NCBI GenBank assembly: GCA_044225175.1
Contig: JBGAJA010000002.1
Span: forward strand, 82,917 to 146,916
Reading direction: 5' to 3'
Length of the DNA stretch: 64,000 bases
DNA from: Candidatus Omnitrophota bacterium
Lineage (GTDB): Bacteria; Omnitrophota; Gorgyraeia; Zapsychrales; Fredricksoniimonadaceae
A program made the position numbers and the translations under genes. Shown here one piece after another: positions 4,291 to 61,720 of the stretch; within the stretch, counting starts at the first letter, position 1; the number at the start of each line of letters is the position of its first letter. A model generated the notes under the pieces. The model was given only the letters and a program-made list of their open reading frames with translations. It made no database searches and was not told where the DNA came from.

Positions 4291-4632
4291 TTATCCAATG
4301 GCTTTTGAACCTTCTTCGCCGGTGCGGATGCGAATGGCACGAGGCAAATCAAGGACGAAAATCTTGCCGTCTCCGATTTTTCCTGTGCGCGCACCTTTGA
4401 TAATCGCCTTAATTGTAGGCTCCACGTAGTCGTCATTGACGGCTATTTCCACTTGGATTTTACGAAGAAGATTACCTGTTTCTTTGACCCCGCGATAAAA
4501 TTCATCAACACCAATTTGGCGGCCATGACCTAAGACTTCCAAGACAGTAATTAAACTCACTTGAGCTTCATATAATGCAGTTTTCACATCTTCGAGCCTG
4601 TGCGGCTGGATGATTGCGATGATTAATTTCAT
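4291..4632 (-). CDS. glnK: PII nitrogen regulatory protein (copy 1)
   Basis: 113 aa: [17 protein letters not shown]...[29 protein letters not shown]...[12 protein letters not shown]. The T-loop is conserved, a GGAGG Shine-Dalgarno is present, and it lies downstream of amt. Confidence 0.9.
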
Positions 4633-4652: not shown

Positions 4653-4712
4653 CGTAGGGGCGACCCTTGCGGTCGCCTTATTATTGGGCAGGTGCTAGAC
4701 CTGCCCCTACGA
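4653..4712. repeat. Composite REP/BIME-like element (two hairpins, GTAGGGGCGACC..GGTCGCC and GGGCAGG..CCTGCCCCTAC) in the amt1-glnK1 spacer
   Basis: Direct reading. Outer arms CGTAGGGG / CCCCTACG, and internal hairpins gcgacc-cttgc-ggtcgc and gggcagg-tgctaga-cctgccc. Confidence 0.7.
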
Positions 4713-4716
4713 TTAT

Positions 4717-5955
4717 TTAATCCAAAATCGTATATGCACGTTCATGGTGTTGTGTTAAATCTAATCCCATGATTTCATCTTCGGCGCTCACGCGCATACG
4801 AATGATCTTATCGGTCACGAAGCAAATAATCCATGTCATCACGCCACAATACAAAACAGCAACGACGGCACATTTTAATTGGATAAAGAATTGCTGCGGA
4901 TTACCCAGAAACATGCCATCTGCTCCAGCAGGATTAACTGCTTTGGTGCCGATTAATCCAATGGCTAATACTCCCCAAAATCCACTCACTCCATGAACAC
5001 CAAAAGCATCTAGCGTGTCGTCGAATTTAAATTTCTGTTTAAATGAGCTGATTGCAAAGAAACTTAAAAGACTTGCTCCTGCACCAACAATCAAAGCTCC
5101 TTGAAAATCAACAAACCCGCAAGAAGGGGTGATTGCAACTAACCCTGCAACTGCTCCTGAAATGGATCCGTACATCGTTGGTTTTCCGGATAAAGCCCAT
5201 TCTAATATGGCCCACACCACAACAGCTGCACTCGCTGCAGCATTTGTTGTAATAAAAGCATTCACCGCAACGCCATTGGCTCCTAAAGCAGAGCCCGCAT
5301 TAAATCCTAACCATCCAAACCACAGCAAACATCCTCCCATGACAACCATAGGAATATTATGCAGACTTGGTTTTGAAACTCCAATTCTCTTGCCTAAGTA
5401 AATGGCTGTAATCAACCCTGCAACTCCACAATTGATTTCAATGACAGTTCCTCCCGCAAAATCCAAAAGGCCCCAGCCACGAAATAAACCGCCTGTCCCC
5501 CAAGCCATATGAGCCATAGGACAATACACAAAAGTAAGCCATAGCACTGTGAACAATAAGAATGCAGAGAATTTAACACGTTCCGCATAAGAACCCACAA
5601 TAATGGCAGGAGTAATAACCGCAAACATGCATTGGAAGATCATAAATGCACTATGTGGAATAGTTGCGGAATAATCGGGGTTGGCATCTGCTCCAACTCC
5701 TTTAAGCATTAACCAATCAAATCCTCCAAAGAGCCAATTGCCTGTTGAAAAAGCCAAACTATACCCATACATACCCCATATAATACTAATCACAGCCAAG
5801 CAGGCCATGCACTGCATCAAAATACCTAGAACGTTTTTACGACGAACCATTCCTCCATAAAAGAACCCTAACGCGGGCGTCATAAGTAACACCAAAGCAG
5901 CTGACACTAACACCCATGCCGTATCCCCGGCACTGATTTGATTGACTGAATCCAT
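4717..5955 (-). CDS. amt: Ammonium transporter (Amt family), copy 1
   Basis: 412 aa polytopic membrane protein: MDSVNQISAGDTAWVLVSAALVLLMTPALGFFYGGMVRRKN. Confidence 0.9.
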   Translation of the reverse strand: MDSVNQISAGDTAWVLVSAALVLLMTPALGFFYGGMVRRKNVLGILMQCMACLAVISIIWGMYGYSLAFSTGNWLFGGFDWLMLKGVGADANPDYSATIPHSAFMIFQCMFAVITPAIIVGSYAERVKFSAFLLFTVLWLTFVYCPMAHMAWGTGGLFRGWGLLDFAGGTVIEINCGVAGLITAIYLGKRIGVSKPSLHNIPMVVMGGCLLWFGWLGFNAGSALGANGVAVNAFITTNAAASAAVVVWAILEWALSGKPTMYGSISGAVAGLVAITPSCGFVDFQGALIVGAGASLLSFFAISSFKQKFKFDDTLDAFGVHGVSGFWGVLAIGLIGTKAVNPAGADGMFLGNPQQFFIQLKCAVVAVLYCGVMTWIICFVTDKIIRMRVSAEDEIMGLDLTQHHERAYTILD

Positions 5956-6041: not shown

Positions 6042-6084
6042 GAAGCTCAGAGATGTTCTCTTTGAAAGAACATCTCTGAGCTTC
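6042..6084 (-). terminator. Leader intrinsic terminator between the amt1 promoter and the amt1 start (perfect 17-bp stem followed by U-rich run on the minus strand)
   Basis: gaagctcagagatgttc-tctttgaaa-gaacatctctgagcttc, with an A-run on the + side at 6031-6041. Confidence 0.65.
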
Positions 6085-6134
6085 TTCGCTCTTATTAATT
6101 GAAGACCTCATTGCCCCCAATCCAATTGAGGGCA

Positions 6135-6163: not shown

Positions 6164-6191
6164 GTAAGGGCGTATTGCAATACGCCCTTAC
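6164..6191. repeat. 28-nt perfect palindrome GTAAGGGCGTATTGCAATACGCCCTTAC (REP-like, GTA...TAC ends), 3 nt after the glnK2 stop
   Basis: Direct reading. It has the same 28-nt length and GTA...TAC architecture as the in-frame palindromes at 10974 and 11130. Confidence 0.7.
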
Positions 6192-6564: not shown

Positions 6565-6593
6565 GTACGGGCACCGCATGCCGTGCCCCTACG
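6565..6593. repeat. REP element GTACGGGCACCGCATGCCGTGCCCCTACG in the amt2-glnK2 spacer
   Basis: Palindrome gggcacggcatgccgtgccc flanked by GTAC/CTAC. It is the same family as the copy at 23398. Confidence 0.75.
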
Positions 6594-7844
6594 TTAATCT
6601 AAAATCGTATACGCACGTTCATGATGTTGTGTTAAATCAAGACCCATGACTTCATCTTCTTGAGATACACGAAGACCCATGACTTTATCAATTGCAAAAC
6701 AGATAATCCAAGTGGCGATTGCGGTGTAACCAATTGTGACTGAGCAAGCCACGAATTGATTCCACAATTGAGCCCCATTACCTAATAAAAGACCATCTGC
6801 ACCAGCACCATTGACTAACTTGGTTGCAAAGATACCTGTTGCCAAAGCACCCCATAACCCGCCGATACCATGGATACCGAAAGCATCGAGTGTGTCATCA
6901 TAACCAAACTTCGGTTTTACATAAGCAACCATGCAATAGCAGAAGATGCTAACTAAGAAACCAATCCATAAAGAACCACCGATGTCGACGAAACCGCAAG
7001 CAGGAGTAATTGCAACCAACCCTGCAACTGCACCGGAGACGACACCAACCATTGTTGGTTTTCCTGCAAAGATCCATTCCATCAAAGCCCAGCTAAGTGC
7101 AGCAGCAGCTGTGGCTGTGTTGGTTGTGACAAATGCATGAGCTGCTAAACCACTTGCACCTAAAGCAGAACCTGCATTGAAACCAAACCATCCAAACCAG
7201 AGTAAAGCAGCACCAATCACAATAAAAGGAACATTGTGCATACCTGGCTTTTCGGTATGACCAATACGCTTACCTAAATATAAGGCTGTAACCAAACCTG
7301 CAATACCTGCGTTGATATGAACAACAGTACCGCCAGCAAAGTCTAAGGCGCCTAAACCACGTAAGAACCCGCCAACACCCCAAACCATGTGTGCAATTGG
7401 GCAATAGACTAAAAGCAACCATAATGCGGTAAAAACTAAGAATGCAGAAAACTTCATACGTTCAGCAAAGGATCCAATAATGAGCGCTGGTGTAATGACC
7501 GCAAACATACATTGGAAGATCATAAAAGCCAAATGAGGAATGGTCGCTGCATAATCAGCGTTAGCATCTTGTCCAACACCTTTAAGCATAAACCAATCTA
7601 AACCACCCATAAAGGCGCTTCCCTTACCAAATGCTAAACTGTAACCTATTACCACCCATAAAATACTCACCAAAGCCAAGCACACAAAACATTGCATAAA
7701 AACACCTAAGATGTTCTTACGTCTAACCATACCTCCGTAAAATAAAGCGAGTGCTGGAACTGTCATCAACAAAACTAGTGCAGTTGATGCCAATACCCAT
7801 GCCGTGTCCCCGGCATTGATTGGATTTACTATTGTTGTATCCAT
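6594..7844 (-). CDS. amt: Ammonium transporter (Amt family), copy 2
   Basis: 416 aa, paralogous to amt1. Confidence 0.9.
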   Translation of the reverse strand: MDTTIVNPINAGDTAWVLASTALVLLMTVPALALFYGGMVRRKNILGVFMQCFVCLALVSILWVVIGYSLAFGKGSAFMGGLDWFMLKGVGQDANADYAATIPHLAFMIFQCMFAVITPALIIGSFAERMKFSAFLVFTALWLLLVYCPIAHMVWGVGGFLRGLGALDFAGGTVVHINAGIAGLVTALYLGKRIGHTEKPGMHNVPFIVIGAALLWFGWFGFNAGSALGASGLAAHAFVTTNTATAAAALSWALMEWIFAGKPTMVGVVSGAVAGLVAITPACGFVDIGGSLWIGFLVSIFCYCMVAYVKPKFGYDDTLDAFGIHGIGGLWGALATGIFATKLVNGAGADGLLLGNGAQLWNQFVACSVTIGYTAIATWIICFAIDKVMGLRVSQEDEVMGLDLTQHHERAYTILD

Positions 7845-8097: not shown

Positions 8098-11000
8098 TCA
8101 GATCTTAGCCAATTGCTCTTGTTCTCGTCCAGGATTTGTAGAATTATCCTTCAATCCTAACAGAGGTCTCATTTGCATAATGTTCAGCGGTGTTATCTGA
8201 ATGATCACAGGTTCAGCTGAGAATATGCCTTGAACTTTAATACGTGCAATCATGGCTGGATCGAAATTCACTTTAACCTCACCGTTAACATCTTTCATCA
8301 CACTCATGCCCATGTTGGCACTGTTTAAATCAATACCACCGGGAGAAGAACTGTGGGCTGAATCTGTGGTTAATCCTTTATTTATTGAGGCATCGGTGGA
8401 TCTAGCTCCTTGACCAGCAAAACTTTTGGACATGGCGAAATCGGAAAACCGTTCAACCATACTATCAATAGACTTACCATTCACATTTTTAATGGTATCT
8501 ATTTCATTTCGGAACCTATTGGCTAATTCGTAAGCTGTTAAATCAGTGGGGAAATTCCTTATATAACTTATTATTTTTCCATCCTCTTTTTTTTCTATAA
8601 TTAATTTTCTTTGATTACTTCCCAAATCTTCAGCTTTAACCATCCAACCTTTCTTAGAAAGCATATTTGCTGATACTCTAACTCTGACTACTTTTTTACT
8701 CCTAGCCCTCGCTGCATTAACAGCTGGCTTAGCTGCCATGGCGGAGTCATATGGTCGGGGGAAACGGTTGTTAACAAGATCACAAAGAGTAGTCACCGTC
8801 CATGGTTTATCAAAAATATTATCCCTCTCTTGATCTGAGAACTCCGTAATGGATAATTCTCTCTGTATTGTTGAAAACAACCCAAATTCTTTGTTATATC
8901 TATTTTTTCCTAAATTAACCGAAGGAGTATCGCTGTCCTTAAGGGAACCCTTTGCTAATCCAAATTGTCTTTCTATAATTTCAATAACTTTTTGTTTTCG
9001 TCCTTTGTTCTGAATGTCATATTTTATGAATCTAATCCATTTTCCTAGTTGATCTTGATTATACGATTGCACTCCAATACTATCTGTATTGTTTTCATCT
9101 GCCTTAAGTAGATGTCTTCCTTCAAAATATTCATTTTTTATTGCTTCATAAATTTCTTTGTCTTCTGGAAACAATCTTGACAAGACGAGAATTTCAACAA
9201 AATTAGTATTACGACTCGAATTTTCTAAAAAACTGCCATAAAACTCATCGATAAAACGGATAACACGATCATATTCAAATTCTTTCCCATTCTTAAACTT
9301 AATCTTCACCTCCATCGCTGCGTCGTTAGATGCGATGGCCGCATCGGAGAATTTCTTTGGCTGACTGGCTATCATGGCTAGATGAGGTAAGGCTGCTTTC
9401 ATATCATTAACTTTAGCGATCATTGCCTCGCTCACATCAGGTCTCCAGCGATCGTCTCTTGCAGTAGTATCAATATGATTAGGAAGAGAAGCGGCTAAAG
9501 CTGCCAATTTTGCAATTTCAAGCGGTGCAAATCTTTGGTCTATTCTCAAGGGAAGGTATCCTCTATCAGCACCAAAGCGCTCGGAGAAGTTTGATTCTAC
9601 AATCAACATCACCGTAGGGTTTTCATATGTATAAGCAAAAGGTTCCCATTGGTCTATTTCTTCTTTAAAACTGTCTGGCATAATTACAAAAAGAGTGGCT
9701 GGTTCATACGCAGATAAAGCCCGACGATAATAAAATCCTTTAGCAACGGTTTTTGTGATCGAGCCTCCTCTGACCGTCTGTTGTGCTGTTAATTGCAAAT
9801 TCAATTGATCTCTAAAAGAAACTGTTGCTTCTTGAGGTCCAAAAACTATTCTAAAGCCTCGTGGACTACCATCACTCCATATAAGATTCCCATGCTCATC
9901 TTGTGAATACCCTTGATTGGATTGGTTAAAATGCAACATCGCTGAGTCGGAAGATTTGACTGCTATGGCCCGTTGTGGATTAAAAGCACCATTAATATTT
10001 AAGGCTGTTGTGATACGTTGGAACGAAGAGCCTGTGGGGGTAGCCACAGTGGCTGCATCCATTAAATTGTGCGATACACTAAGCATTGCTTCATTAGGCC
10101 CTTGGTATCCCCCTGAGAAGTATTTTCGTGGAATTCTTTGACCCGTAAGCTTGCCCTGAGCGTCAGTCAAAGGGTCTTCTTTGATATAGTTGAATACACC
10201 CTTCTTATATGCCTGAAGATACTGCTGGTAGATTTGTTCTTTTACAGATGGATCAGAAAGGTTGACGCCTTTAATTGTATTTTTATTGGAATAGACCTGA
10301 TTAATAAGCGCTTCTTTAAGGTTCTTTTTGTACCATATAGCCAGAATCTGGGAATTGAAGATTTGGCGTAATGTGGCGAAGTTTTTGCCGGTGTTGACTT
10401 CTTTTTCGATTTCAGGAATGACGATGTCTCGAATGATTTGGCTGCTGATGACGTTGGGGGTATTTCCCTGGGTTGCTTTCACATTCAACGCTGTCTCGCT
10501 TGGCAACCTGCTTGGGGACACGTTCTGGTTGTTCTTGTTAGGAACATGTCCCCTGGTTGGCATTTGGTTTTTATCTCTGGCTAGATAATCTTCCTCCAAC
10601 ATCACCTTCAAATGCCCATCTACAACAAAGGCTGTTTGTCCATGTTCATATACACTGGCTTTATCGGCTAGAATCCACACCTTATTAAAGGTGTTAACTG
10701 GTATCTGAGCATTGGGACCGTAGATTGCTTGGGCTTTGGCATAGACTCTGTTCCAAAACTCTTTTCCTAGGTCTTTCTCTGGATAGATCAAAGATGCGGT
10801 TAACTGTTTGAGGATGTAGTCTTGGGCTAAAAGATCTCTGCCTAAGGCTGTTTGGCCTAAGGCTTCAGGAACTATACGGTCTTTTTCATAGGGGCTTAGG
10901 TTCACCCATAGGTCTTTCTCTGGAACGGTTAGGCAGGCGAAGAAATATTTAACCAAACGGTCGCCTTCTTGATGTAGAGACGCAAGATCTTGCGTCTCTA

Positions 11001-11235
11001 CAGATAGGCCGGAATTCCCGGTATCTACGATAAAATCAAATAAAAATGGATTATCTTTATGAACAGTTAAACCTTTGATTAAGGTTGGTTCAAAGGCTGG
11101 GCTTAAATTGACCATGGTTCCAGGAATAGGTAGAGACGCAAGATTTTGCGTCTCTACTGCATGTGATTTAGGAATAATAATTGATGTGCATGAAAAGGTA
11201 AGAATAACCAGGGAAGCAGTAACCTTCTTAAACAT
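8098..11235 (-). CDS. Giant secreted protein B (1045 aa), a paralog of the 1848-aa protein. It has a signal peptide. Its N-terminal domain of about 330 aa and a short C-terminal module (GGIDxxS...) are shared with A. Function unknown.
   Basis: Long ORF. N-terminus ...CLTVPEKDLWVNLSPYEKDRIVPE...NTFNKVWILADKASVYEHGQTAFVVDGHLKVMLEEDY aligns with protein A. Signal peptide MFKKVTASLVILTFSCTSIIIPKSHA. Confidence 0.75.
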   Translation of the reverse strand: MFKKVTASLVILTFSCTSIIIPKSHAVETQNLASLPIPGTMVNLSPAFEPTLIKGLTVHKDNPFLFDFIVDTGNSGLSVETQDLASLHQEGDRLVKYFFACLTVPEKDLWVNLSPYEKDRIVPEALGQTALGRDLLAQDYILKQLTASLIYPEKDLGKEFWNRVYAKAQAIYGPNAQIPVNTFNKVWILADKASVYEHGQTAFVVDGHLKVMLEEDYLARDKNQMPTRGHVPNKNNQNVSPSRLPSETALNVKATQGNTPNVISSQIIRDIVIPEIEKEVNTGKNFATLRQIFNSQILAIWYKKNLKEALINQVYSNKNTIKGVNLSDPSVKEQIYQQYLQAYKKGVFNYIKEDPLTDAQGKLTGQRIPRKYFSGGYQGPNEAMLSVSHNLMDAATVATPTGSSFQRITTALNINGAFNPQRAIAVKSSDSAMLHFNQSNQGYSQDEHGNLIWSDGSPRGFRIVFGPQEATVSFRDQLNLQLTAQQTVRGGSITKTVAKGFYYRRALSAYEPATLFVIMPDSFKEEIDQWEPFAYTYENPTVMLIVESNFSERFGADRGYLPLRIDQRFAPLEIAKLAALAASLPNHIDTTARDDRWRPDVSEAMIAKVNDMKAALPHLAMIASQPKKFSDAAIASNDAAMEVKIKFKNGKEFEYDRVIRFIDEFYGSFLENSSRNTNFVEILVLSRLFPEDKEIYEAIKNEYFEGRHLLKADENNTDSIGVQSYNQDQLGKWIRFIKYDIQNKGRKQKVIEIIERQFGLAKGSLKDSDTPSVNLGKNRYNKEFGLFSTIQRELSITEFSDQERDNIFDKPWTVTTLCDLVNNRFPRPYDSAMAAKPAVNAARARSKKVVRVRVSANMLSKKGWMVKAEDLGSNQRKLIIEKKEDGKIISYIRNFPTDLTAYELANRFRNEIDTIKNVNGKSIDSMVERFSDFAMSKSFAGQGARSTDASINKGLTTDSAHSSSPGGIDLNSANMGMSVMKDVNGEVKVNFDPAMIARIKVQGIFSAEPVIIQITPLNIMQMRPLLGLKDNSTNPGREQEQLAKI
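10974..11001. repeat. 28-nt perfect palindrome GTAGAGACGCAAGATCTTGCGTCTCTAC embedded in frame in gene B, encoding VETQDLASL
   Basis: Direct reading. Codons gta gag acg caa gat ctt gcg tct cta fall in the gene B frame. Confidence 0.8.
11130..11157. repeat. Second copy (27/28 identical) of the GTAGAGACGCAAGAT(T/C)TTGCGTCTCTAC palindrome, in frame in gene B. It encodes VETQNLASL at residues 27-35, immediately after the predicted signal-peptide cleavage site SHA.
   Basis: Direct reading. Residue V27 maps to 11155-11157. Confidence 0.8.
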
Positions 11236-11670: not shown

Positions 11671-14600
11671 CTATTCCGCCAATAATGTGTGGATCATGCT
11701 TTGAGAAACAGGTACAACCATTACAACTTCAGGCGTTATTCCATAGATGGATTGTATTGAAAAAGGCTCTATGCTAGGTTGATTAGTCCCTTGCTCTTGA
11801 AGATCTAATAAATGACTGTCCATATCAATGCCCCCTTTAATCTCAGAGAGGCCTTTAACAGGATTTGCGGTCATCATAGCCTGGTCTGAAGGAGATTTTC
11901 CAATCTCTTCAACCTTTGCAACCGTTTGAGGGTCAATCCCAATAGGTGAACGGGTAGTGTGAACGGAAATACTAGGATATGTCCAGGCCCGGTTCCAAAG
12001 GTGAATATCTTGAGGCTTAATACTCATCTTAAAAAGACCCAAATTGATCGTGAACTCAGGAAATATGGAAATGGTACTGGCCTTTTTATACATGGCATTA
12101 AACATCACCTTGTAAGCCATTAAACGGCCCAAAGGATCAAAAGCAAGGTTATTCATTTTCTTAATCACCTCACTATCCGTCGCATTTAATATCTGGCCTT
12201 GAATGTTGATGTGGTGATCTGTAATATTTTTATCTGAAAAATCCTCTCGGCCGATCGTAGTCACCTCTGCACCAGATACCAAACGATTGCCAAAAATACC
12301 ATTTCTAACCGCCTTAGCCTGTCTCAGAGTGACTTTAACAGCCTCTTTGGCCATTTGATCAACAGGAAGAGCACTAATAAGTTGTAGACCTCTGACAATG
12401 CGATGCGTAAATCTGGCTCCCAAATGATCTTCGGGGTTTCCTCCATGAACATTCATCGTCATGGAACCAGGCGCACGGGCCCCCATTTTGCTGACAAACG
12501 CAGTACTAATCTGATGCACAAAAGGAAGGTCTCCAATGACCATACTAGGAGGCCCCATTCTCGCCCATCGAGGCCTGCCGGTAAAGGTACGATAAATAAG
12601 TGTCGTAATTAAAAAAGGCGCCCACACCGCAACCATAAAGTCTGCTGTGGTTGCCCAAAAACCACTCATACTGCGAAGCGCAGGACCAGGGGGACATCCT
12701 AACGCATTCATGGCTAAATGAACTGGAGCTCCCATATAAAAAATACTAGCGACAAATGCTCTGAAGATAAAATTAACTTTAGGGGTTTCCAATAAATGTC
12801 CCCCGAGATACTGTCCATGATTAATTAGTTCTTGATGAACCTTGCTCTTAATGTCCCTGCCTTGCTCATCAACTCCTGTTATTCTTTTGGAATCTTTGAT
12901 CATTCCCTGAATCATGTCCTCGAGCCTTTTGAGATCGCTTTCTTGAACTTGTAAACCCCAAGGATTGTGATGAGGAAAAACTTCTCTTAATCGTTTAACC
13001 AAATGCCGTGTTAATAAAATCTGCTCTGCAAATAAAAGAATGTCTGAAGTAGGAGCTGCTTCTGCTGGATAGTAATCTCCCGTCGTAAAAATACGCCTTG
13101 TAAAAGGAGCATCCGGAGTTAATCTTTGCCCTAAAGCCATGTTGATCATGGCATCCAGACGAGAGGTCATCACAAATGTGTTGCCTTGAGTAATCTTATT
13201 TAAAAGTCCTGCTAAGGCCATGCTTGGAAATGTAGATCCGGAAAGAGATATGATTAAGCCGATTGTCCTATTGTTTATTTTAGATAGAGGGTCACGCAAT
13301 TTTTTATTAGAAGAGTTGGTTTCAATAGGCATTTTGGGCATAAAAATATGCAGTAATTGCTTAAAATTTTCACCTAACCACAAAGATTTTTCATAACCAC
13401 TAATATCTAAAACGGTGTTGTTGGAATCGTCCTTATTATTTAGTGTTTTTTGTTTTTGACGCAAACTTGAGATAGAACGATCAAAGTTAGCTATTAAATC
13501 ATCTAGAATTATTTTAATCTGAAGTTCGGTAAAAACCTGAAGCTCATGGTCCATTTGTTCAGCATGCTTTATAAGATCTTCATCTTTGATCTGTCTTGAT
13601 AGCAGCTTCTTATTTAAATCTTCTGCATAAGAAATAATGAAATTACTCGCCTGACTTTCAATGATGGCCACGATCAATGAGTTTTCCCAAGAAATGGAAT
13701 CTTGGTGCAAAAATTTCTTTTGATCTTCTGAACAAACCACTTGGCCTGATTCACAATCCTGTAAAAATTTGTGGATTCGCCTGACTACATCTGCACGCAA
13801 CAAAGAATACGTGAGGCTGTGTTTCTTTAAGAAATCTTCCACGTAACGAGAGGATGCCATTTCAGCAAAGGCTTCTGCAGATTGATAGTCAAAAGACCGT
13901 GGATTTTCCCAGTCCTTAACTTTGGTAGAGATGGCGTTGGATGTTCTTTCTAAATCTTCATCGATAATGTTTTGAGGATCTTTATATTCAATAGGGGGCT
14001 TGTAGTATGGATTATCTTCATTTAAAGAATAAAGCCGTTGTGAAATTTGTTCTGGGGTCAGATCTTTATTGCCGGAAGAACGCACCCTCACATAAAAGGC
14101 CTTTGTCTTTGAAAAACCAATGTCTGCAACCTCATCCTTTCTGGGATCTAACATAAATAACTTCTCTAAAGAACCTTTACTGCCAAATTTTCCCAATAAA
14201 ACCAAAGGGTCTGAGGCAAAGCTCAAAAACTTCTTCATTACATTAAAGCCAAACGCCATGCCTTGGGATTTTGAAAAAAGAGTCACTCCGTCATTTTGTA
14301 AAGAAGTCCTGACAACTAGCCCATAAGATCCTTCAGCTCTTTCTTTAAAATCCAAAGTGGCTTGAAAACGATTGCCAATAAAAAACCTTTCAACGGCCAT
14401 GTCCACAAATCGAATTCTAGTCTCTTGGCTTTGATTCCACCGACGTAAAATTTCTCCAGCTGGGGTTTGTTTTGAACCCTCTGCTTCTAAGCGTTTCACT
14501 AACTTTTCTTTAAACGCATTGATCTTGTGGTATTGAAACTTCAAATCCGGCCATTGATTAGCCATGTCTTTGCTTACCCACAAATCTTTAAATTCTTTAT

Positions 14601-17217
14601 TAGCCCCCAGATCAGGTCGCGAGAGCCCTGGGGCATCTTGGATAAAGATTTCTTCGAAGAGTTGCGCCATAGCATCTTCTTCTTCGATGTTTAGAATATC
14701 CCCCAAGGCTTCATCTGCTGTTTTATGATTGACCATGACATGGGCGTATCGAATCGATCCCCGCCAGCTGCCTTGAGTTAAATGAAAATGGATTTCTGGA
14801 GCCGTAGGTGGTGAGTCGCCCTCAGGCATATAGTCATAGCGCCCCTGGGTGCCCCTTTCTGGATCAGGAGGAATCCATACATCTTTCTTCATATGAACGA
14901 CTTTGCCAAAGAACTCTCGAATCTCTGTAAGATCAAGCATTCTGTCATGCAAATAATAATAATCATTGTCTCCGTTATGAGAGGTAGTGACCAAAACTTC
15001 TTTCTTATGGACCACCAGTTTTCCATCGCTAATTGCCCATTGAAGTCTTTCTTCTTTAGGACCTAAGAAAGGATGTGAGGCCCTTTTGCTGACAGCCCCT
15101 CCCGTGGCAAAACGCACATGACCATTGACTCCATGAACCATGACTTCACTATCAGCTGAATGCTTTGCTCCCTTGATGTCTTGTCTGAATTCACTGAGCA
15201 AGGAGCTTACTAAATCACTGCCTGCACCTCGTTTACTTTTAACGACCTTGGTCAAATAAACATTGGCTTCTCCATTAGAACCATCAATCATCACCTGTCC
15301 GGCCGACTGACCGCCTCTCACAATCAGACGCCTCATAAGCCCATCTACTCCCTCCTGCACCCATTGGGGATAAAGCCCTTGATTGGATTCATCAACCCAG
15401 AACACTCCATAATTGCCGCATTCGAATTTATCTGAATCAACAGGGAGTTTTTTAATGTCGGATTTCCATGAGGCCTTGATGGCATTCCATCCTGACACAC
15501 CGATAGGGCCTAAAAGAGGTAAAACCCAGGAATGTTCAAGCCCAAGAAAATAAGCGCTAATAGCTGTAGCGACTGTGGTAAGCCACGTTGCAGCGAATCC
15601 TGTATAATGGATGGTTTTTTTCCTCCAACCTTCACTGGAAAAAAGAACATAAGGGTTTTCTTTAGGTATTTGCCTCCAGGGTAATATTATTTGCAACCAT
15701 TGATTGAGACTGAAATTTGCTTTCAAATTATTAACACTTAAAGCTTCTTTCGATCGATGAGGATGGAATACGGCAGAGGACACAGCATGACCACCGACCT
15801 CATGAACCCCTATATTTAAGGCATATAATGCGCGTGTAATAAATGGCAAGGCAACCGCAGTCGTTATTAAACTCACTGGGTCCCATCCAACTGTACTAGT
15901 TGCTATGACCATGCCGCTACTCCAGCCTAAAAAATCCATCGATCTTGAGTATGTGGTCGCGGACTTTTGAGCAAAGTCTCTTTCTTTTCCTCCGACCAAA
16001 CGAGGAATAGAATTTCTAACTTCTCCTTCTATTAGCTTGAATGGATGCTTATTCGTCAAAGTTCTTTGATCAGGAAAACGCACAATGGAACCATGTTCAT
16101 CTGTAGCATTCAAATCGATAGTGGCCATGGCCAAATCACTGCCTAAGTCCATCCCTTGAGAATTCTCTATTTCACTGTAAACATGTTTGGTTTGAAGGCC
16201 GAATCCTATAAAATCCATCCCTCCTGATGCATATTTACGAGGAATAACTGTTTGATTTGAAGAATCATAATCTTCACGGATATAGTTATAAACCAGCTTT
16301 TTATATGCCTTCAGGTACTGTAAGAAAATCTTTTCTTTAATGTTCTTATCTTGAGCATCCACCCCTGTGATTTTATTTTTTCCAACATACTCTTGAGATA
16401 ACACGCTGCTTTTTAAATGTTTCTTGTACCATGTTGCTAAAATCATGGCATTGAAGACTTGGCGAACGACCGCAAAATTCTTTCCCTCATTGATTTCCCG
16501 CCTTAGTTCAGGAAGAATAATTTCTCGGACGATTTGGGCGTATTTTTCCGTAGGGGCAGGCCCCTGCCCGATATTTTTATCCATCGACACATAATCGTAT
16601 TCCAACATCACATCCAATTTGCTATCCACAACAAAAGCACTATCTCCCTTCACATAAACCTTGGCTGTTTTAGGGACGATCCAAACTTTATTAAAGGTAT
16701 TAATAGAAACATTGGTTGTGCCATAGATTTCTTGAGCCTTTAGATATATTTTTTGCCAAAACTTTCGGCCTAATTCATTTTCGGGGTAACTTAAAGAAGC
16801 CATGATTTGTTTAAGTAGATAGTCTTGTTCTAAAAGACTTTTCCCCATTTCCGTTCTACCAAAGTATTCAGGTGCAATGCGGTCCTTTTCATAGGGCGAA
16901 AGATTGACCCATAGATCACTTTCGGGAACTGTTAAGCAAGTAAGGAAATATTTGGTGAGTGTGGTAATTGCATCTTTTAAAGCTTGCCCTCTAAGGCCAG
17001 AAGCTCCTTCATCAATTAAGAAATCAAAACGCAAAGCATTATTCGTGTTGGTCTTAATCCCTTTTAATACCAAGGGTTTAAAAGAGGGGCTTGTAGAAAT
17101 CATCATCCCAGGAACAGGAAGATGAGGCATAGATTGAGCATGAGCATCCGGTAAAGGACCTAAGGAAGTAAGAAAAAATGCAAGAATGAGGATCTGAATA
17201 AGAATTTTCTTGATCAT
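11671..17217 (-). CDS. Giant protein A (about 1848 aa from ATG 17217; the ORF track uses an upstream TTG). It has a signal peptide, the shared N-terminal domain, several hydrophobic TM segments, an embedded class II (Ntn) glutamine-amidotransferase-like domain (residues about 604-760) and the shared C-terminal module. Function unknown.
   Basis: ...KFECGNYGVFWVDESNQG...RRLIVRGGQSAGQVMIDG...HGVNGHVRFATGGAVSKRASHPF...VTTSHNGDNDYYYLHDRM matches the GlmS/PurF/AsnB N-terminal motifs (CGIVG, RRLEYRGYDSAG, HTRWATHG..AHPH, VHNGIIENY). TM-like stretches include FIFRAFVASIFYMGAPVHLAMNALG and AVWAPFLITTLIY. Confidence 0.8.
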   Translation of the reverse strand: MIKKILIQILILAFFLTSLGPLPDAHAQSMPHLPVPGMMISTSPSFKPLVLKGIKTNTNNALRFDFLIDEGASGLRGQALKDAITTLTKYFLTCLTVPESDLWVNLSPYEKDRIAPEYFGRTEMGKSLLEQDYLLKQIMASLSYPENELGRKFWQKIYLKAQEIYGTTNVSINTFNKVWIVPKTAKVYVKGDSAFVVDSKLDVMLEYDYVSMDKNIGQGPAPTEKYAQIVREIILPELRREINEGKNFAVVRQVFNAMILATWYKKHLKSSVLSQEYVGKNKITGVDAQDKNIKEKIFLQYLKAYKKLVYNYIREDYDSSNQTVIPRKYASGGMDFIGFGLQTKHVYSEIENSQGMDLGSDLAMATIDLNATDEHGSIVRFPDQRTLTNKHPFKLIEGEVRNSIPRLVGGKERDFAQKSATTYSRSMDFLGWSSGMVIATSTVGWDPVSLITTAVALPFITRALYALNIGVHEVGGHAVSSAVFHPHRSKEALSVNNLKANFSLNQWLQIILPWRQIPKENPYVLFSSEGWRKKTIHYTGFAATWLTTVATAISAYFLGLEHSWVLPLLGPIGVSGWNAIKASWKSDIKKLPVDSDKFECGNYGVFWVDESNQGLYPQWVQEGVDGLMRRLIVRGGQSAGQVMIDGSNGEANVYLTKVVKSKRGAGSDLVSSLLSEFRQDIKGAKHSADSEVMVHGVNGHVRFATGGAVSKRASHPFLGPKEERLQWAISDGKLVVHKKEVLVTTSHNGDNDYYYLHDRMLDLTEIREFFGKVVHMKKDVWIPPDPERGTQGRYDYMPEGDSPPTAPEIHFHLTQGSWRGSIRYAHVMVNHKTADEALGDILNIEEEDAMAQLFEEIFIQDAPGLSRPDLGANKEFKDLWVSKDMANQWPDLKFQYHKINAFKEKLVKRLEAEGSKQTPAGEILRRWNQSQETRIRFVDMAVERFFIGNRFQATLDFKERAEGSYGLVVRTSLQNDGVTLFSKSQGMAFGFNVMKKFLSFASDPLVLLGKFGSKGSLEKLFMLDPRKDEVADIGFSKTKAFYVRVRSSGNKDLTPEQISQRLYSLNEDNPYYKPPIEYKDPQNIIDEDLERTSNAISTKVKDWENPRSFDYQSAEAFAEMASSRYVEDFLKKHSLTYSLLRADVVRRIHKFLQDCESGQVVCSEDQKKFLHQDSISWENSLIVAIIESQASNFIISYAEDLNKKLLSRQIKDEDLIKHAEQMDHELQVFTELQIKIILDDLIANFDRSISSLRQKQKTLNNKDDSNNTVLDISGYEKSLWLGENFKQLLHIFMPKMPIETNSSNKKLRDPLSKINNRTIGLIISLSGSTFPSMALAGLLNKITQGNTFVMTSRLDAMINMALGQRLTPDAPFTRRIFTTGDYYPAEAAPTSDILLFAEQILLTRHLVKRLREVFPHHNPWGLQVQESDLKRLEDMIQGMIKDSKRITGVDEQGRDIKSKVHQELINHGQYLGGHLLETPKVNFIFRAFVASIFYMGAPVHLAMNALGCPPGPALRSMSGFWATTADFMVAVWAPFLITTLIYRTFTGRPRWARMGPPSMVIGDLPFVHQISTAFVSKMGARAPGSMTMNVHGGNPEDHLGARFTHRIVRGLQLISALPVDQMAKEAVKVTLRQAKAVRNGIFGNRLVSGAEVTTIGREDFSDKNITDHHINIQGQILNATDSEVIKKMNNLAFDPLGRLMAYKVMFNAMYKKASTISIFPEFTINLGLFKMSIKPQDIHLWNRAWTYPSISVHTTRSPIGIDPQTVAKVEEIGKSPSDQAMMTANPVKGLSEIKGGIDMDSHLLDLQEQGTNQPSIEPFSIQSIYGITPEVVMVVPVSQSMIHTLLAE
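16548..16570. repeat. REP-family sequence (GGGCAGG-cc-CCTGCCCCTACGG on the coding strand) embedded in frame in gene A, encoding GQGPAPTE, in a region that differs from paralog B
   Basis: Direct reading. It has the same CCTGCCCCTAC half as the intergenic REP at 4690-4712. Confidence 0.6.
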
Positions 17218-17231
17218 AATGGCTTTCAAAT

Positions 17232-23395: not shown

Positions 23396-23397
23396 TA

Positions 23398-23429
23398 CCC
23401 GTAGGGGGCACGGCATGCCGTGCCCGTAC
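23398..23429. repeat. REP element CCCGTAGGGGGCACGGCATGCCGTGCCCGTAC in the nuoM-nuoN spacer
   Basis: Same family as the copy at 6565, in the opposite orientation. Confidence 0.75.
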
Positions 23430-23447
23430 TGTACAGAAAGAATACAC

Positions 23448-24910: not shown

Positions 24911-24942
24911 TTGGGTTTGATGAATCAAACCCCTACGGATTT
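24911..24942. repeat. Hairpin GGGTTTGA-TGAA-TCAAACCC plus CTACGGATTT that overlaps the stop codon of the RAYT gene. A 30/32 copy lies inside the RAYT CDS at 25197-25228.
   Basis: Direct reading. The last codons of the RAYT gene (aat ccg tag) are part of the element. Confidence 0.7.
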
Positions 24943-25466
24943 ACATTATTTGGATCTGTTTCCCACATTTGAGGATTATTAATAATGTATTGCCGTATCT
25001 GCATTAATTCTTTTTCATGACGAATGATATGTTCATAATAATTACGTTGCCATGCAAATGTGCTATTTTTAGCGTGAATTAATTTTGTGGTTTTCGCCTT
25101 AAAATGTCTAATAATTTTCCCTAACGAAACATCGTGTTGTTGCATCAATCGCCATGATTCCGTAGGGGCATGATTTATCATGCCCTTATGAATGTCTTGG
25201 GTTTGATGAATCAAAACTCTACGGATTTCAATAATTCCATGAATATGATTTGGCATAACTACAAACGTATCCATATAAATTGGATAATGTTTTGGTAATT
25301 GATCCCAAACTGATTGCACCATTTGGCCGGAATCATTTAAAATCATGCGCTCATTAATAATCTGACCAAATAAATGCATCCGGTAATTTACACATATGGT
25401 CAAAAAATAATAACCCGCAGATGAATAATCATATCCTTTCAAGCGTAATGAACTTCTTTTGGGCAT
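24933..25466 (-). mobile_element. REP-associated tyrosine transposase (RAYT; IS200/IS605 TnpA-like HuH Y1 transposase), single copy
   Basis: 177 aa with the HuH motif MPNHIHGII and the catalytic Tyr motif QRNYYEHIIR. REP-like palindromes with GTAG/CTAC ends are scattered through the window. Confidence 0.8.
25162..25185. repeat. REP-like palindrome GTAGGGGCATGA-tttat-CATGCCC inside the RAYT CDS, in frame, encoding ...GMINHAPTE...
   Basis: Direct reading. Together with the copy at 25197-25228 (encoding EIRRVLIHQTQ), it accounts for an insertion of about 20 aa between the HuH and Tyr motifs relative to typical RAYTs. Confidence 0.6.
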
Positions 25467-25516: not shown

Positions 25517-25541
25517 ATTTGTGACGCACTGCGTCACAAAT
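25517..25541. promoter_or_regulatory. Perfect palindrome ATTTGTGACGC-act-GCGTCACAAAT in the RAYT 5' leader (candidate operator or RNA hairpin)
   Basis: 11-bp arms, located between a candidate promoter and the RAYT ATG. Confidence 0.5.
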
Positions 25542-26555: not shown

Positions 26556-27110
26556 TCACAGACCTGTAAACTCTAGAACATACGGATCTTTGATCATATC
26601 TTGATAGGTATTTAATTCGTGTCCCTTCTGAGCCAATTTCATAATCCCTTTCTTATCTCTACTTAATGCAAGACGTTCAAAAAGAGAAGATCCTTTTTGG
26701 CGTTCTAGTTCCCGAGATGACCAATTATTCTTAATGCATTCAATCTCATAAAATGAACGTGCCTCTGGTCTATCAATGCACATAAGAATGCGATGATGAG
26801 TCCATGTCAATTCGAGACGCAGTGCGTCTCGAATTGGATAAATTAAATAGAATTGTCGAATCTTCCTTAAATTTGTTTCATCATACCCTTCTCCAAAGTC
26901 AATCTTCAAACGCATAGCTAACTTTTCGAGAAGATTCTTTCCATATTCTGCCCTGCCTTTTCCTTTCTGCTCTTCTTCAACAATCTCCTTCCCAATTTGC
27001 CAATAAGTTTGAACCATCTCACTATTCACCGAAAGCATGATGTTTGCGCGCGCATGTTCAATAATGTTGTGGATTCGATTATAAATATTCTTAGAAGCTG
27101 TTTTAGACAT
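26556..27110 (-). CDS. YhcG/DUF1016 family protein with the N-terminal domain only (184 aa; the PDDEXK nuclease half is missing, so possibly a truncated remnant)
   Basis: ...TYWQIGKEIVEEEQKGKGRAEYGKNLLEKLA...LTWTHHRILMCIDRPEARSFYEIECIKNNWSSRELERQKGSSLFERLALS...IKDPYVLEFTGL stops where full-length YhcG continues into the nuclease domain. Confidence 0.5.
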   Translation of the reverse strand: MSKTASKNIYNRIHNIIEHARANIMLSVNSEMVQTYWQIGKEIVEEEQKGKGRAEYGKNLLEKLAMRLKIDFGEGYDETNLRKIRQFYLIYPIRDALRLELTWTHHRILMCIDRPEARSFYEIECIKNNWSSRELERQKGSSLFERLALSRDKKGIMKLAQKGHELNTYQDMIKDPYVLEFTGL

Positions 27111-48562: not shown

Positions 48563-49675
48563 TTGAAGAAAAACATTTTTTATACTATTGCCTTCATTAT
48601 TTTACTTTCCAATGGATTTTACTTATCTTCTCAAAAACCCTTGTGGAGCGATGAAATTCTCTCTCAAACACTTACCATTAATCAAAGCTATTCTGATCTC
48701 TTGCTTAAAAAAAATCCTCAAGAAGGAAACGTGTCTCCTCTGTTTTATATTCTTCAGAAATCCTTTTGTGATCTCTTTGGATTTCGGACTCCTACTCCTT
48801 GGTTAAATGGGCACTGGGAATACCGAGATATGGCTGCAAATATTTTCTTAAGAATTCTTCCGGTTGTTTGGATGTCCTTGTCCTTCTTGCTTTTTCTCAT
48901 CTACTTTTCAAAACGTTTTAATCTTTGGGTAGGAATCTTTAGTTTATCTCTAGCGCTTTCTTCCTCCATGTTATGGTCATATTGGGCAGAGGCGCGACCC
49001 TATGGTCTTTGGATTCTTCTAACTGTCTGTCAAATGATTATATTTTGTGAATTATTTCAAAAACAGCCTTTCCAGCTTAAAAAGTGGGTTTTATTATCCT
49101 TGGTTCATCTAGCCTTGAGTCTTACTTGTGCCCTAAGCTTTGTTCAAATTAGCGTTATTTATTTTCTCTTATTCTTAAAAGAACGCCGATGGATTCAATG
49201 CATCTTTCTCTTACTGCTTCCTCTTTGTTTTATTTATTTCTACAAGCCTATTTCTTCATTTAACAATGTTCTTGTAATAGCTCCAGTTAACGAACTAATT
49301 TTTAATACTATTCCTAAAGAAAAACTCTGGGTGCTGTGTCTTTATCCTTTAATGCTCACATTAGTTCTTCTGTATAAAAGATTTTCTGAAACTTATGGGC
49401 CTGAGAGTGAGACGTTCAAAAAATGTTTGCCTTTGTTTACAGCGATTTACTTAATGATTTTGTCGGTTGTTCTTTTTCTTGCTTATTTAAAATCTCATTC
49501 GACAGGATCATCTCAAATGATCCTGTCGAGACATGTGATATTCTTGGTTCCTTTAGGTGTGTTTGGAATTTCTTATTTGGTAGGTACTCTATGGGAGACA
49601 GTTAAGCAGCCTTGGTGGCTTAACTTGTTCATCTTTATTCTTATTACGTTACTCTTAATTCCAACCTATCGATAA
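48563..49675 (+). CDS. Polytopic membrane protein (possibly a GT-C-like glycosyltransferase); TTG start after a GAGGA Shine-Dalgarno
   Basis: 370 aa with about 10 TM segments. Confidence 0.45.
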   Translation: MKKNIFYTIAFIILLSNGFYLSSQKPLWSDEILSQTLTINQSYSDLLLKKNPQEGNVSPLFYILQKSFCDLFGFRTPTPWLNGHWEYRDMAANIFLRILPVVWMSLSFLLFLIYFSKRFNLWVGIFSLSLALSSSMLWSYWAEARPYGLWILLTVCQMIIFCELFQKQPFQLKKWVLLSLVHLALSLTCALSFVQISVIYFLLFLKERRWIQCIFLLLLPLCFIYFYKPISSFNNVLVIAPVNELIFNTIPKEKLWVLCLYPLMLTLVLLYKRFSETYGPESETFKKCLPLFTAIYLMILSVVLFLAYLKSHSTGSSQMILSRHVIFLVPLGVFGISYLVGTLWETVKQPWWLNLFIFILITLLLIPTYR

Positions 49676-59655: not shown

Positions 59656-61680
59656 TTAACGACGGGTTGCTTTTAAATCTTTAATGAGAGCTTGAATAAT
59701 GCGCTCATAGCTGGAAGATACTTCCTCTTCTCGCAGGGTTTGTTTGTGACTTTGGTAAATCAAAGAGAAAACCAAAGATTTTTGATCAGGAGAAATTTTA
59801 TCACCCGTGTATTGCTCAATGAATTGAATACTTCTAAGAATATCTCCACCATTTTGACGACAAATAGTTTCAATCTCTTTGTATGATGTTTCTTTTCCAA
59901 TCGCTAAGGATACGTCACGCGTAACTGCGGGGAACTCAACTAACGGTTCATATTTAGTAGTCGTCTTAGGTAAACAGAGAATTTCTTCCAAATGAATACT
60001 GGCAAAATAGACGTCTTGATTCTTGATCTCCCAATTAGTCAGAATTTGTTTGTTCACTTTTCCCAAAAATCCGATTTCTTTTCCTTTAAAAAAAACACTG
60101 GATGAACAGGACTCTTCTAAAATATGTGATTGATTTGGCTTGATTTCGACATTCACATTTAAAGAACGACATACATTTTCAAGGACGCCCTTTAAATCGA
60201 AAATCTCTACATTTTCTTTTCGAGAAATACGCCAGTCTTCGCTTCGTCGACCGGTCATAATAATTGCCAGAGTTTCTTTCTCGCCATTTTTTGAGTATCT
60301 TTTACCTATTTCAAAAATCTTAAGATCCCTTTGTCCTCGGTTAAAATTAGTTAGAGTTACGTTTAAAAGCGAAGGCAAAAGGGATGGTCGTTTGAATTCT
60401 TGTTCCGTCGTCAGAGGATTGTAAACTCGAAGGGCCTTCACATCTTGGTACATGCATTTCTCAATGTCTTTTGCACTTAGCATAGATAAAGTCACCGCTT
60501 CATTTAAACCTGATGCCAGAAGTATTTGTCGAATTAGTTTCTTTAGCTTAATGGGCCTGTCGCTAATTGTGACGTTTTTTGCCTTAATATGAGGGAGGCT
60601 CGTGGGAAGACGATCAAACCCTATAATACGGGCAACTTCTTCAATCAAATCAACCGTTTCTTTGACATCTCCTCGGAAACTTGGAGGTGTGACCATCAAC
60701 ACATTTTTAGAAGAAGAAATCTTAAATTCTAGATTAACCAAAATCGTTTTAATTTGTGCTAAAGAAACTTTGTGACCCAAGAGACTTTCCACATCTTGGG
60801 ATGTTATTTTGATCGATTTAGAAGTACGCTTAGCACCATATGCTGCATCTGTGCGAAAAGCCAGATGACCATGGGTTAAATCCAACAATAGATCTGTAGC
60901 ACGGTTGGCTCCCATTAAAACGCCATCAAAATCCACATTACGTTCAAATCGATAAGAAGAATCGCTTCGAAGCCCTAATTTTCGAGAGGCACGTCGAATA
61001 AGAGTCATGTCAAAATGTGCACTTTCAAGAAGGATGTTCTTGGTAAGCTCTGTTACTTCTGTTTCTTTTCCTCCCATGAGCCCTGCAATCGCAATTGGTT
61101 TTCTTACATCTGCTATCACTAAAATCGTTGGATCTAATGTTCTTTCAATTCCATCAATCGTAATAATCTTCTCTCCTTGCTTGGCTCGACGCACGATGAC
61201 CCTTCCGCCTTCGATCTTATCGTAATCAAATACATGCAAAGGTTGACCCGTTTCCATCAACACAAAATTGGTAATATCGACAGCATTGCTGATGGATGTA
61301 ATTCCCAAAGCATTGATGCGTTCTTGAATAGGTTGAGGTGAGTATGTGATGTTAGTATTAGTAATTAGTGTTGCGATATAACGACTGCAGTCTTTCTTAT
61401 CTTCAATGGAGATAGAAATCTTATTCTTAGTTGGCTTATGTGCTTTAATCTTTGGGGAGTTCACCTTGCGTGAACTAATTGCACCTATCTCACGAGCAAG
61501 TCCTAAAATATTTAAACAGTCGGGTCTATTAGGGGTAATTTCAAGTTCAAAGACAGTGTCTTTTCCATGAAGTTCCACACCCTCAACTTCCCATCCTGCC
61601 ATGACGAGACGAGTAGTTAAATCGTCTGTCGATAGCTTTGGGTCAATATAATCTTTTAACCAATTGAGGGATAATTTCAT
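59656..61680 (-). CDS. pheT: Phenylalanyl-tRNA synthetase beta subunit
   Basis: MKLSLNWLKDYID.... The ORF-track start at 61704 lies inside a REP. Confidence 0.85.
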   Translation of the reverse strand: MKLSLNWLKDYIDPKLSTDDLTTRLVMAGWEVEGVELHGKDTVFELEITPNRPDCLNILGLAREIGAISSRKVNSPKIKAHKPTKNKISISIEDKKDCSRYIATLITNTNITYSPQPIQERINALGITSISNAVDITNFVLMETGQPLHVFDYDKIEGGRVIVRRAKQGEKIITIDGIERTLDPTILVIADVRKPIAIAGLMGGKETEVTELTKNILLESAHFDMTLIRRASRKLGLRSDSSYRFERNVDFDGVLMGANRATDLLLDLTHGHLAFRTDAAYGAKRTSKSIKITSQDVESLLGHKVSLAQIKTILVNLEFKISSSKNVLMVTPPSFRGDVKETVDLIEEVARIIGFDRLPTSLPHIKAKNVTISDRPIKLKKLIRQILLASGLNEAVTLSMLSAKDIEKCMYQDVKALRVYNPLTTEQEFKRPSLLPSLLNVTLTNFNRGQRDLKIFEIGKRYSKNGEKETLAIIMTGRRSEDWRISRKENVEIFDLKGVLENVCRSLNVNVEIKPNQSHILEESCSSSVFFKGKEIGFLGKVNKQILTNWEIKNQDVYFASIHLEEILCLPKTTTKYEPLVEFPAVTRDVSLAIGKETSYKEIETICRQNGGDILRSIQFIEQYTGDKISPDQKSLVFSLIYQSHKQTLREEEVSSSYERIIQALIKDLKATRR

Positions 61681-61690
61681 ATAAATTATT

Positions 61691-61720
61691 GTAGAGGCGG
61701 ACACATAGGTCCTCCCCTAC
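61691..61720. repeat. Imperfect REP (GTAGAGGCGGAC-acat-AGGTCCTCCCCTAC) in the pheS-pheT spacer
   Basis: Direct reading; 10/12 arm matches. Confidence 0.6.

Follow-up and report, generated by a model that had tools for sequence, protein, structure and literature searches.

A REP sequence read in frame in a hypervariable loop of a giant Omnitrophota gene

[quoted passage not shown] The DNA considered here, a window of 64,000 nucleotides (64 kb) from a Candidatus Omnitrophota bacterium, contains a copy that departs from this feature, as it is located in frame inside of a giant gene, gene A (11671..17217, minus strand). How did a REP come to encode part of a protein, and is it of any use there? 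A first-pass annotation of the window had proposed that a member of an intergenic REP family sits in this gene and encodes the residues GQGPAPTE, and this was borne out by the sequence, the frame, and the flanking homology. The site is probably a REP-derived passenger that became fixed in frame in a tolerant loop, with the REPs tied to a nearby REP-associated tyrosine transposase (RAYT) of subclass 2.4. In-frame REPs are known from other bacteria, and the principle was published in 2013 and 2018 (PMC3733652, PMC6006769). What is modestly new is that, within a large protein family of the Omnitrophota, REPs have come to occupy a single loop repeatedly. This extends in-frame REPs to the Omnitrophota and provides an unusually clear case of a protein loop that has been rebuilt repeatedly from mobile hairpin DNA.

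The REP copy in gene A and its loop

The REP copy (16550..16569, plus strand) is 20 nt long and reads GTAGGGGCAGG-CC-CCTGCCC. Its GTAG head (16550-16553) is joined straight onto a GC-footed inverted repeat with the arms GGGCAGG (16554-16560) and CCTGCCC (16563-16569) around the centre CC, and the conserved flank TTCC (16546-16549, plus strand) precedes the head. The plus strand reads ccGTAGGGGCAGGCCCCTGCCCg at 16548-16570 and ttccGTAGGGGCAGGccCCTGCCCg at 16546-16570. On the minus, or coding, strand, 16548-16570 reads CGG GCA GGG GCC TGC CCC TAC GG. The copy thus carries the tag of GTAG REPs, GT[AG]G at the 5' foot of a stem-loop. It is also a short GC-rich palindrome, at the lower end, in both length and hairpin strength, of the 20-40 bp range that is typical of REPs; the other copies in the window are 24-30 nt long. 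The 7-bp arms effectively form a hairpin of 6 bp with a 4-nt loop, with an energy of -11.2 kcal/mol as mRNA, whereas an intergenic relative at 4686-4710 folds more strongly, at -15.5 kcal/mol. On the strand antisense to gene A (16550-16579, plus strand), GATATTTTTAT comes right after the hairpin.

Gene A encodes 1848 amino acids from its ATG, and the public gene call is this ATG-start protein (P0241). The mechanical open reading frame (ORF), 11671..17229, starts at a TTG and runs for 1852 codons without a stop. The REP-coded residues, GQGPAPTE (16546..16569, minus strand), are encoded by the codons GGG CAG GGG CCT GCC CCT ACG GAA. In residue numbers, they are 221-228 when counted from the TTG and 217-224 in P0241, and with the preceding codon, ATC, the frame reads I G Q G P A P T E. 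They fall in a linker, IGQGPAPTEKYA (16537..16572, minus strand), between the conserved segments ...YVSMDKN and QIVREIILPE. Two thirds of this linker is REP-coded.

The protein has a signal-peptide-like N-terminus, an Omnitrophota-specific N-terminal domain of about 340 amino acids, and a long C-terminal part without a family match. The N-terminal domain is common to gene A and the adjoining paralog, gene B (8098..11235, minus strand). A protein search found 927 homologs of it, essentially all from Candidatus Omnitrophota. The genomic matches number at least 571, single genomes contain several copies, and a signal peptide is present. Neither Pfam nor NCBIfam has a model for the domain, and its fold matches nothing in the PDB at an E value below 0.1. 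The homologs align to gene A on both sides of the REP in one frame, and invariant residues, e.g., V203 and P236, flank the site. Since the 927 homologs align across the site in this way, the REP is part of the coding sequence rather than of an unrecognized spacer.

The REP residues lie between the family blocks ...MLE.DY... and QI(V/I)REI(V/I)IPE, in the domain's only unalignable segment. To follow this segment at the level of DNA, 98 domain copies were located in 80 genomic loci of family members and each linker was excised. With its anchors, the linker spans 17-64 residues in these 98 members, one cut-off copy aside, and it is equally variable in 120 protein hits. Between DKN and QI(V/I)R(E/D)I there are 12 residues in A, among the shortest of the family, and about 42 in B, among the longest. 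This is exactly where the two paralogs had been said to diverge in length. In an AlphaFold model of the gene A domain (35-sequence alignment, mean pLDDT confidence score of 71), residues 215-222 are coil, with a pLDDT below 50 at 215-220, and are located between helices 206-214 and 223-244. The REP-coded stretch occupies the domain's only hypervariable, loop-forming linker.

The REP family of the window and its transposase

The architecture of the gene A copy, (c)GTAGGGG followed by a variable stem and CCC, is found at seven other places in the window, and there is a degenerate ninth copy at 25199-25222 (minus strand). The seven are located at 4654-4677, 23401-23429, and 25162-25185 on the plus strand and at 4686-4710, 6569-6592, 24913-24936, and 61691-61720 on the minus strand. 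There are thus 8-9 copies of the GTAGGGG type, a count that covers 64 kb of the genome. The stems vary between copies and the exact gene A 20-mer is single. The sequence GTAGGGGC was seen 5 times where 0.75 were expected, and none of 100 shuffles reached 5. Seven cases of GTAGGG joined to a hairpin of at least 6 bp were found vs. 0.04 expected (300 Markov simulations, maximum of 2). Among the REPs of the window, the one most closely related to the gene A copy is intergenic, GTAGGGGCAGGTCTAGCACCTGCCC (4686..4710, minus strand), in the spacer between an amt gene and a glnK gene. The head and both arms are the same in the two, and only the centre differs. As had been noted in the first pass for the half-site, the 11-mer CCTGCCCCTAC of the gene A copy is identical at 4700-4710, and the arm GGGCAGG is also common to both. 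In addition, the 12-nt head of the gene A copy, TTCCGTAGGGGC, is identical to 25158-25169 in the RAYT gene. From the window statistics and from the head and arms that it has in common with 4686-4710, the gene A REP is real and not a product of chance.

The RAYT gene (24933..25466, minus strand) is 8 kb from the gene A site and encodes a protein of 177 amino acids. This protein contains the HuH motif PNHIHG, followed by AWQ (in AWQRNYYEH) and the Tyr motif RQYIINNP. Its Y160 aligns with the catalytic Y115 of the Escherichia coli TnpA-REP structure 4ER8. It matches Pfam Y1_Tnp with 31.6 bits against a cut-off of 23, and NCBIfam REP_Tyr_transpos with 61.8 bits, under the 80-bit cut-off, in a match that is split by internal REPs. 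Quentin et al. (2018, PMC6006769) described subclass 2.4 of the RAYT, or TnpA-REP, proteins, whose genes contain in-frame REPs between the HuH and Tyr motifs. Its counterpart in the classification of Bertels et al. (2017, PMC5581495) is RAYT Group 4. The RAYT of the window fits subclass 2.4, as the motifs that define it in PMC6006769, NH[IFV]H, WQ, and YIxNNP, are all present. The two also share the stem foot of three G-C pairs, the double-foot GTAG...CTAC forms, the flanking REPs, and the variable internal REPs in frame between HuH and Tyr that are the hallmark of the subclass. Nothing essential differs between them, whereas the REP in gene A sits in a gene that is not a RAYT. A cognate RAYT flanked by a REP is therefore present in the same genome as the gene A copy. 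The flanking REP, GTAGGGGTTTGATTCATCAAACCC (24913..24936, minus strand), is at the 3' end of the RAYT gene, and the stop codon TAG (24934-24936) of the gene is the TAG of this REP's GTAG (aat ccG TAG gggtttga...).

The internal REPs of the RAYT gene form an in-frame inverted doublet (25162..25222, minus strand) between HuH and Tyr that encodes RRVLIHQTQDIHKGMINHAPT. The first unit, GTAGAGTTTTGATTCATCAAACCC (25199-25222, minus strand), is the degenerate one, and the second is GGGCATGATAAATCATGCCCCTAC (25162-25185, plus strand). The doublet folds as one larger hairpin, with an energy of -25.5 kcal/mol and z = -5.9. Inverted REP doublets, known as REPINs, are regarded as the mobile unit (Bertels and Rainey, 2011, PMC3116915), and the RAYT-internal doublet, which has its GTAG feet outside, is REPIN-like. 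The inverted order with a short spacer is also seen in the pair formed by 4686-4710 and the REP at 4654-4677. The gene A site is unlike a REPIN, as it is intragenic and a singleton, with no second REP near 16550. The GTAG hairpin closest to it, at 16815, is AT-rich, has 6 bp, and is at chance level.

The residues HAPTE in the RAYT are encoded by GCCCCTACGGAA at 25158-25169, in the same frame of the same REP head as APTE in gene A. The first-pass annotation had regarded APTE as a recurring coding solution and had suggested that the signature (A/G)PTE could be followed to other proteins. It is no special solution but one of the three open frames of the shared head, and [AGS]PTE is found only at these two REP sites among the window ORFs of at least 100 amino acids.

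A total of 120 RAYT homologs were aligned, and almost all of the 60 rows displayed have a REP-coded peptide at the position of the doublet. These peptides use two frames of GTAGGGG, xRG-LI(H/N)QT-PT and VG-Axxxx-P(L/T). A strict count of the peptide motif found it in 63 of the 120 homologs; among the other 57, peptides of this kind can be recognized by eye in most. The DNA of three loci (L206, L207, and L208) confirmed the internal REPs, with one genome each from the Bacteroidota and the Omnitrophota and one contig from a metagenome. The possibility that RAYT-internal REPs were a new discovery was rejected, as they are already published (PMC6006769).

Linkers of homologous genes and the origin of the copy

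REPs were also found in the linkers of other members of the gene A family. The linker of a vent-metagenome homolog (L002) contains GTAGGGGTTTGATTCATCAAACCC, identical to 24913-24936 of the window, which is read as RRGLIHQTQD. The linker of L001 contains GGGCATGATAAATCATGCCCC, the unit found at 25162-25185 of the window, read as KGMINHAP. In an Omnitrophota genome, OFTM38 (L042, 2633-2687), both units are present in inverted order, and their translation is RRGLIHQTQDKGMINHAPT. Except for a spacer that is 6 nt shorter, this doublet is the same as that of the RAYT gene in the window. It is likewise REPIN-like, with the GTAG feet outside, and folds as one larger hairpin. All three of these are in frame within the linker. 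Different GTAG REPs or doublets are found in the linkers of L064, L067, and L079 and, by eye, of L025. Other linkers contain repeat peptides typical of unrelated, widespread palindromes, e.g., VIPAKAGIQ (from ATTCCCGCGAAAGCGGGAAT), SVILSAAKDL, and SERSEESQ. Examples of linkers with repeat peptides are the L028:10001 region, L010, P0020, P0056, P0076, and P0082.

The excess of such elements in the linker can be measured across the 98 members. Perfect hairpins with a stem of at least 8 bp occur at 1.62/kb of linker, whereas the remainder of the domain has 0.16/kb (p = 1.8e-8). Hairpins tagged with GTAG(G/A)G and with a stem of at least 7 bp reach a density of 0.93/kb in linkers; the corresponding values are 0.008/kb for other ORF sequence and 0.17/kb for DNA outside of ORFs. 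The excess of tagged hairpins in the linker over other ORF sequence is about 120-fold (p = 2e-13). About 60 of the 98 members, including paralog B and L004, a syntenic ortholog of gene A, have a linker without a hairpin of at least 6 bp, and about three quarters of the 98 have none of at least 7 bp. Linkers like that of B (QMPTRGHVP...SPSRLPSE...LNVKA.QGN) are common to several homologs and contain GGGGACATGTCCCC in L029. No convincing REP remnant was found in the linker of B, where AGGGGACATGTTCCT resembles a decayed form of the GGGGACATGTCCCC of L029.

Gene B contains REPs of a second type at two further variable spots of the domain. One is a symmetrical double-foot REP, GTAGAGACGCAAGATCTTGCGTCTCTAC (10974..11001), in frame and encoding VETQDLASL. 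The second copy (11130..11157) is just after the signal peptide and encodes VETQNLASL. The variable form of these copies is GTAGAGACGCAA(G)AT(C/T)TTGCGTCTCTAC. Relative to homologs, the net gain is only 3 and 5 amino acids for an element of 9 amino acids, so the gene B REPs partly replace residues.

A recurrent mode of in-frame REP insertion had been suggested in the first pass. The recurrence is well supported by the RAYT doublet, the two gene B copies, and the REPs in the family linkers, while that these arose by insertion we infer. The observation that could have counted against it, a unique motif at a position where orthologues conserve a non-REP sequence, was not made: the REP family recurs, and the orthologous position is hypervariable. 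Gene callers and builders of protein families will see REP-filled linkers as "unalignable." The peptides GQGPAPTE, RRGLIHQTQD, GMINHAPT, VETQDLASL, and VIPAKAGIQ are repeat-coded and are not to be taken for protein motifs.

In-frame GTAG REPs in ordinary genes have been catalogued, e.g., in Opitutus terrae and in uvrA, uvrB, and recBCD of several species, and it was argued that intragenic copies are neutral by way of flexible linkers or loops (Di Nocera et al., 2013, PMC3733652). Intragenic copies are counted as members of the GTAG-REP family in such surveys (PMC3733652). The gene A REP is like these cases, as it is a GTAG palindrome of a kind usually found downstream of genes that lies in an ORF and leaves the frame unbroken. 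The intragenic singles and dimers of that survey encode roughly 8-30 residues, and the gene A REP encodes 8. It differs from them in its host, as the Omnitrophota are a phylum outside of that survey, and in its gene, which encodes a lineage-specific giant protein of secreted type and is not a DNA-repair gene. It also differs in that the same loop of one protein family was repeatedly hit by different REP types, and in that the gene A copy is a shortened 20-nt singleton.

The gene A REP can also be compared to a classic analogue, the Rickettsia palindromic elements (RPEs), with which it is alike in behaviour only, both being palindromic mobile repeats that are tolerated in a functional ORF. RPEs insert in frame in protein-coding genes, and the added peptide is thought to be located at the protein surface. 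The classical RPE-1 is far longer than the gene A element, at roughly 100-150 bp. RPEs are not known to have a RAYT partner. The gene A element is 20 nt and GTAG-tagged, whereas RPEs are unrelated in sequence and do not have the GTAG tag. RPEs are cited by Di Nocera et al. (PMC3733652), who place two shorter intragenic elements, RPE-4 and RPE-6, with the CGTC-type repeats.

The origin of the gene A copy can be approached through its ortholog. L004 is 69% identical to gene A, and GAF-ANTAR and nuo-type genes adjoin. In the DNA, the flanks of the linker align at about 75%. The L004 linker, NKDKRNVSNSPQEAKAAAPFA, contains no REP and is unrelated in sequence, and it is 24 nt (8 codons) longer. The gene A REP thus replaces rather than extends an older linker. 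MAFFT paired CAGGGGCCT with CAGGAGGCT (7 of 9 positions) in gene A and L004, and this pairing was treated as chance. The proteins of gene A, gene B, and the RAYT are each singletons in clusters at 90%. No strain-level variants were found, and Logan contigs hold identical copies.

In the reading that we prefer, a REP or half of a doublet would have entered the linker DNA, either by single-strand cut-and-paste of the RAYT type or by copying from another REP. It could have persisted as five of the six frames of such a REP are open, as it encodes small residues (Gly, Pro, and Ala), and as the loop accepts almost any sequence or length. The ancestral linker would have been lost around it. The 20-nt form may be a shortened REP of 25-26 nt. 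A metagenome scan for GTAGGGGCAGG-N(0-9)-CCTGCCC gave at least 143 matches in at least 120 loci, with centres of 4-9 nt, mostly 7-8. Removal of the 6 nt TGCCTG from GTAGGGGCAGGCCCCTGTGCCTGCCC, which is among the commonest forms, yields precisely the gene A sequence. An in-frame slip between CCTG repeats of such a form is a plausible origin for the copy, as far as the letters can tell. Most likely, the REP-coded residues have no function of their own in the protein and are a passenger that supplies the loop. As they are a passenger in a flexible loop, the biological effect is probably neutral.

Several observations weigh against the passenger reading. The gene A hairpin is weak and folds no better than composition-matched shuffles (z = -1.2). 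The empty site was not found in L004, the closest ortholog, and insertion is inferred from membership in the REP family. The exact 20-mer is unique, with no copy at up to 2 mismatches in the window and 1.2 Mb of Omnitrophota loci, and a 2-nt centre is absent among the metagenome matches listed. Finally, the density of REPs in linkers is about five times that outside of ORFs, a figure based on few events (about 6 that are independent) and on a rough value for intergenic DNA. Such an excess over non-ORF DNA may point to more than passive tolerance. REPs and other palindromic repeats could possibly land, or be retained, preferentially in the linker, with mobile hairpins as a main source of the diversity of the loop in sequence and length, and this we hold to be rather doubtful. 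If it is true, REP turnover would drive the diversification of surface loops in a large, multi-copy family of exported proteins, and REPs would be denser in the loop than in DNA that is truly non-coding.

It is also conceivable, at a low probability, that the hairpin is kept for a role as nucleic acid, such as ribosome pausing, protection of mRNA at a domain boundary of a secreted protein, or antisense termination. The 10-fold enrichment of hairpins in the linker across the family would agree with such a role, as would tagged REPs that are denser in linkers than outside of ORFs. The other REPs in the window directly follow stop codons, as is expected of elements that act at the level of RNA. 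In a simple scan, 16550-16569 was terminator-like on the plus strand, with GATATTTTTAT behind it, but the scan gave 2 overlapping hits vs. 1.1 expected, which is not significant. In addition, roughly 60 members, L004 and B among them, lack a hairpin of at least 6 bp in the linker, and the gene A copy folds no better than shuffles. The hairpins that are present in linkers are of unrelated types that match the repeats of their own genomes, which fits opportunistic retention.

Equally slim is the chance that a REP-derived sequence reached the linker through gene conversion or template switching from another REP, in the course of repair or replication, and not through insertion by a transposase. 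The GCAGG-type copy at 4686-4710, 12 kb away and identical in head and arms with a different centre, is a possible donor. Copying would explain how an old linker came to be replaced by one that is shorter than that of L004, and the gene B double-foot REPs likewise replace residues, with their net 3 and 5 amino acids. However, the homology between the gene A site and 4686-4710 ends at the REP itself, and the intact two-unit doublets in the window's RAYT gene and in the L042 linker are easier to explain by movement of a unit.

There is hardly any probability left for coincidence, in which a linker rich in Gly, Pro, and Ala would happen to be encoded by a REP-like GC-rich palindrome. The hairpin energy is unexceptional for its composition and the exact 20-mer is unique, as would be expected by coincidence. 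Against this, the 12-nt head TTCCGTAGGGGC is the same as at 25158-25169, both arms are the same as those of a third REP, GTAGGG hairpins are expected 0.04 times per window, and exact REP copies are found in the linkers of homologs; coincidence is effectively refuted. The least probable explanation, that the REP is really extragenic and gene A is two genes or is mis-started with the REP in a spacer, gains something from ORF lists that do misplace starts at window REPs (ATG 23415 falls in a REP loop, with the true start at 23445), but is refuted by a domain that keeps a single frame across the site in A, in B, and in over 900 homologs, by the invariant residues on both sides (V203, P236), and by the 1852 codons without a stop.

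Other palindromic elements of the window

Apart from the gene A copy and the RAYT-internal doublet, the copies in the window sit 0-6 nt after stop codons. The partner of 4686-4710 in its inverted pair is the intergenic REP GTAGGGGCGACCCTTGCGGTCGCC (4654..4677, plus strand). Their location in the amt-glnK spacer is confirmed by the adjoining Ammonium_transp (4717..5955) and P-II (4291..4632) genes, and the REP at 4710 begins 6 nt past the stop of the former. An intergenic double-foot REP, GTAGGGGCACGGCATGCGGTGCCCGTAC (6565..6592, minus strand), is 1 nt past the stop of the second amt gene (6594..7844). Another double-foot REP, GTAGGGGAGGACCTATGTGTCCGCCTCTAC (61691..61720, minus strand), is 2 nt past the stop of ORF 61723..62733. 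It overlaps the listed GTG start (61704) of ORF 59656..61704, and this start is therefore probably misplaced.

The double-foot REP GTAGGGGGCACGGCATGCCGTGCCCGTAC (23401..23429, plus strand) is in the spacer between two Proton_antipo_M genes. It is missing in the syntenic ortholog L004, where the spacer has about 11 nt vs. 49 nt in the window (23396-23444). It is a clean intergenic gain relative to L004. The start of the mechanical ORF, ATG 23415, falls in the loop CATG of this REP. By alignment to the ortholog (MFPTINW...), the true Proton_antipo_M start is ATG 23445 (MFPVIDW...).

The window also contains palindromes without the GTAG tag. One, ATTTGTGACGCACTGCGTCACAAAT (25517-25541), is just upstream of the RAYT gene. 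Another, CAATTCGAGACGCAGTGCGTCTCGAATTG (26808-26836), has 13-bp arms and is inside of a DUF1016_N ORF (26556..27110). The two are related, and their core, GACGCA-N-TGCGTC, resembles that of the gene B element. They may be a third repeat family, with one copy again intragenic. The spacer between the two amt genes contains a hairpin with a 20-bp stem, AAGAAGCTCAGAGATGTTCT...AGAACATCTCTGAGCTTCTT (6040-6086), and a double-foot variant with GTAA in place of GTAG, GTAAGGGCGTATTGCAATACGCCCTTAC (6164-6191). A further palindrome with 13-bp arms, TCGACAGGATCATCTCAAATGATCCTGTCGA (49499-49529), is located inside of an ORF (48563..49675, plus strand) that has no Pfam match.

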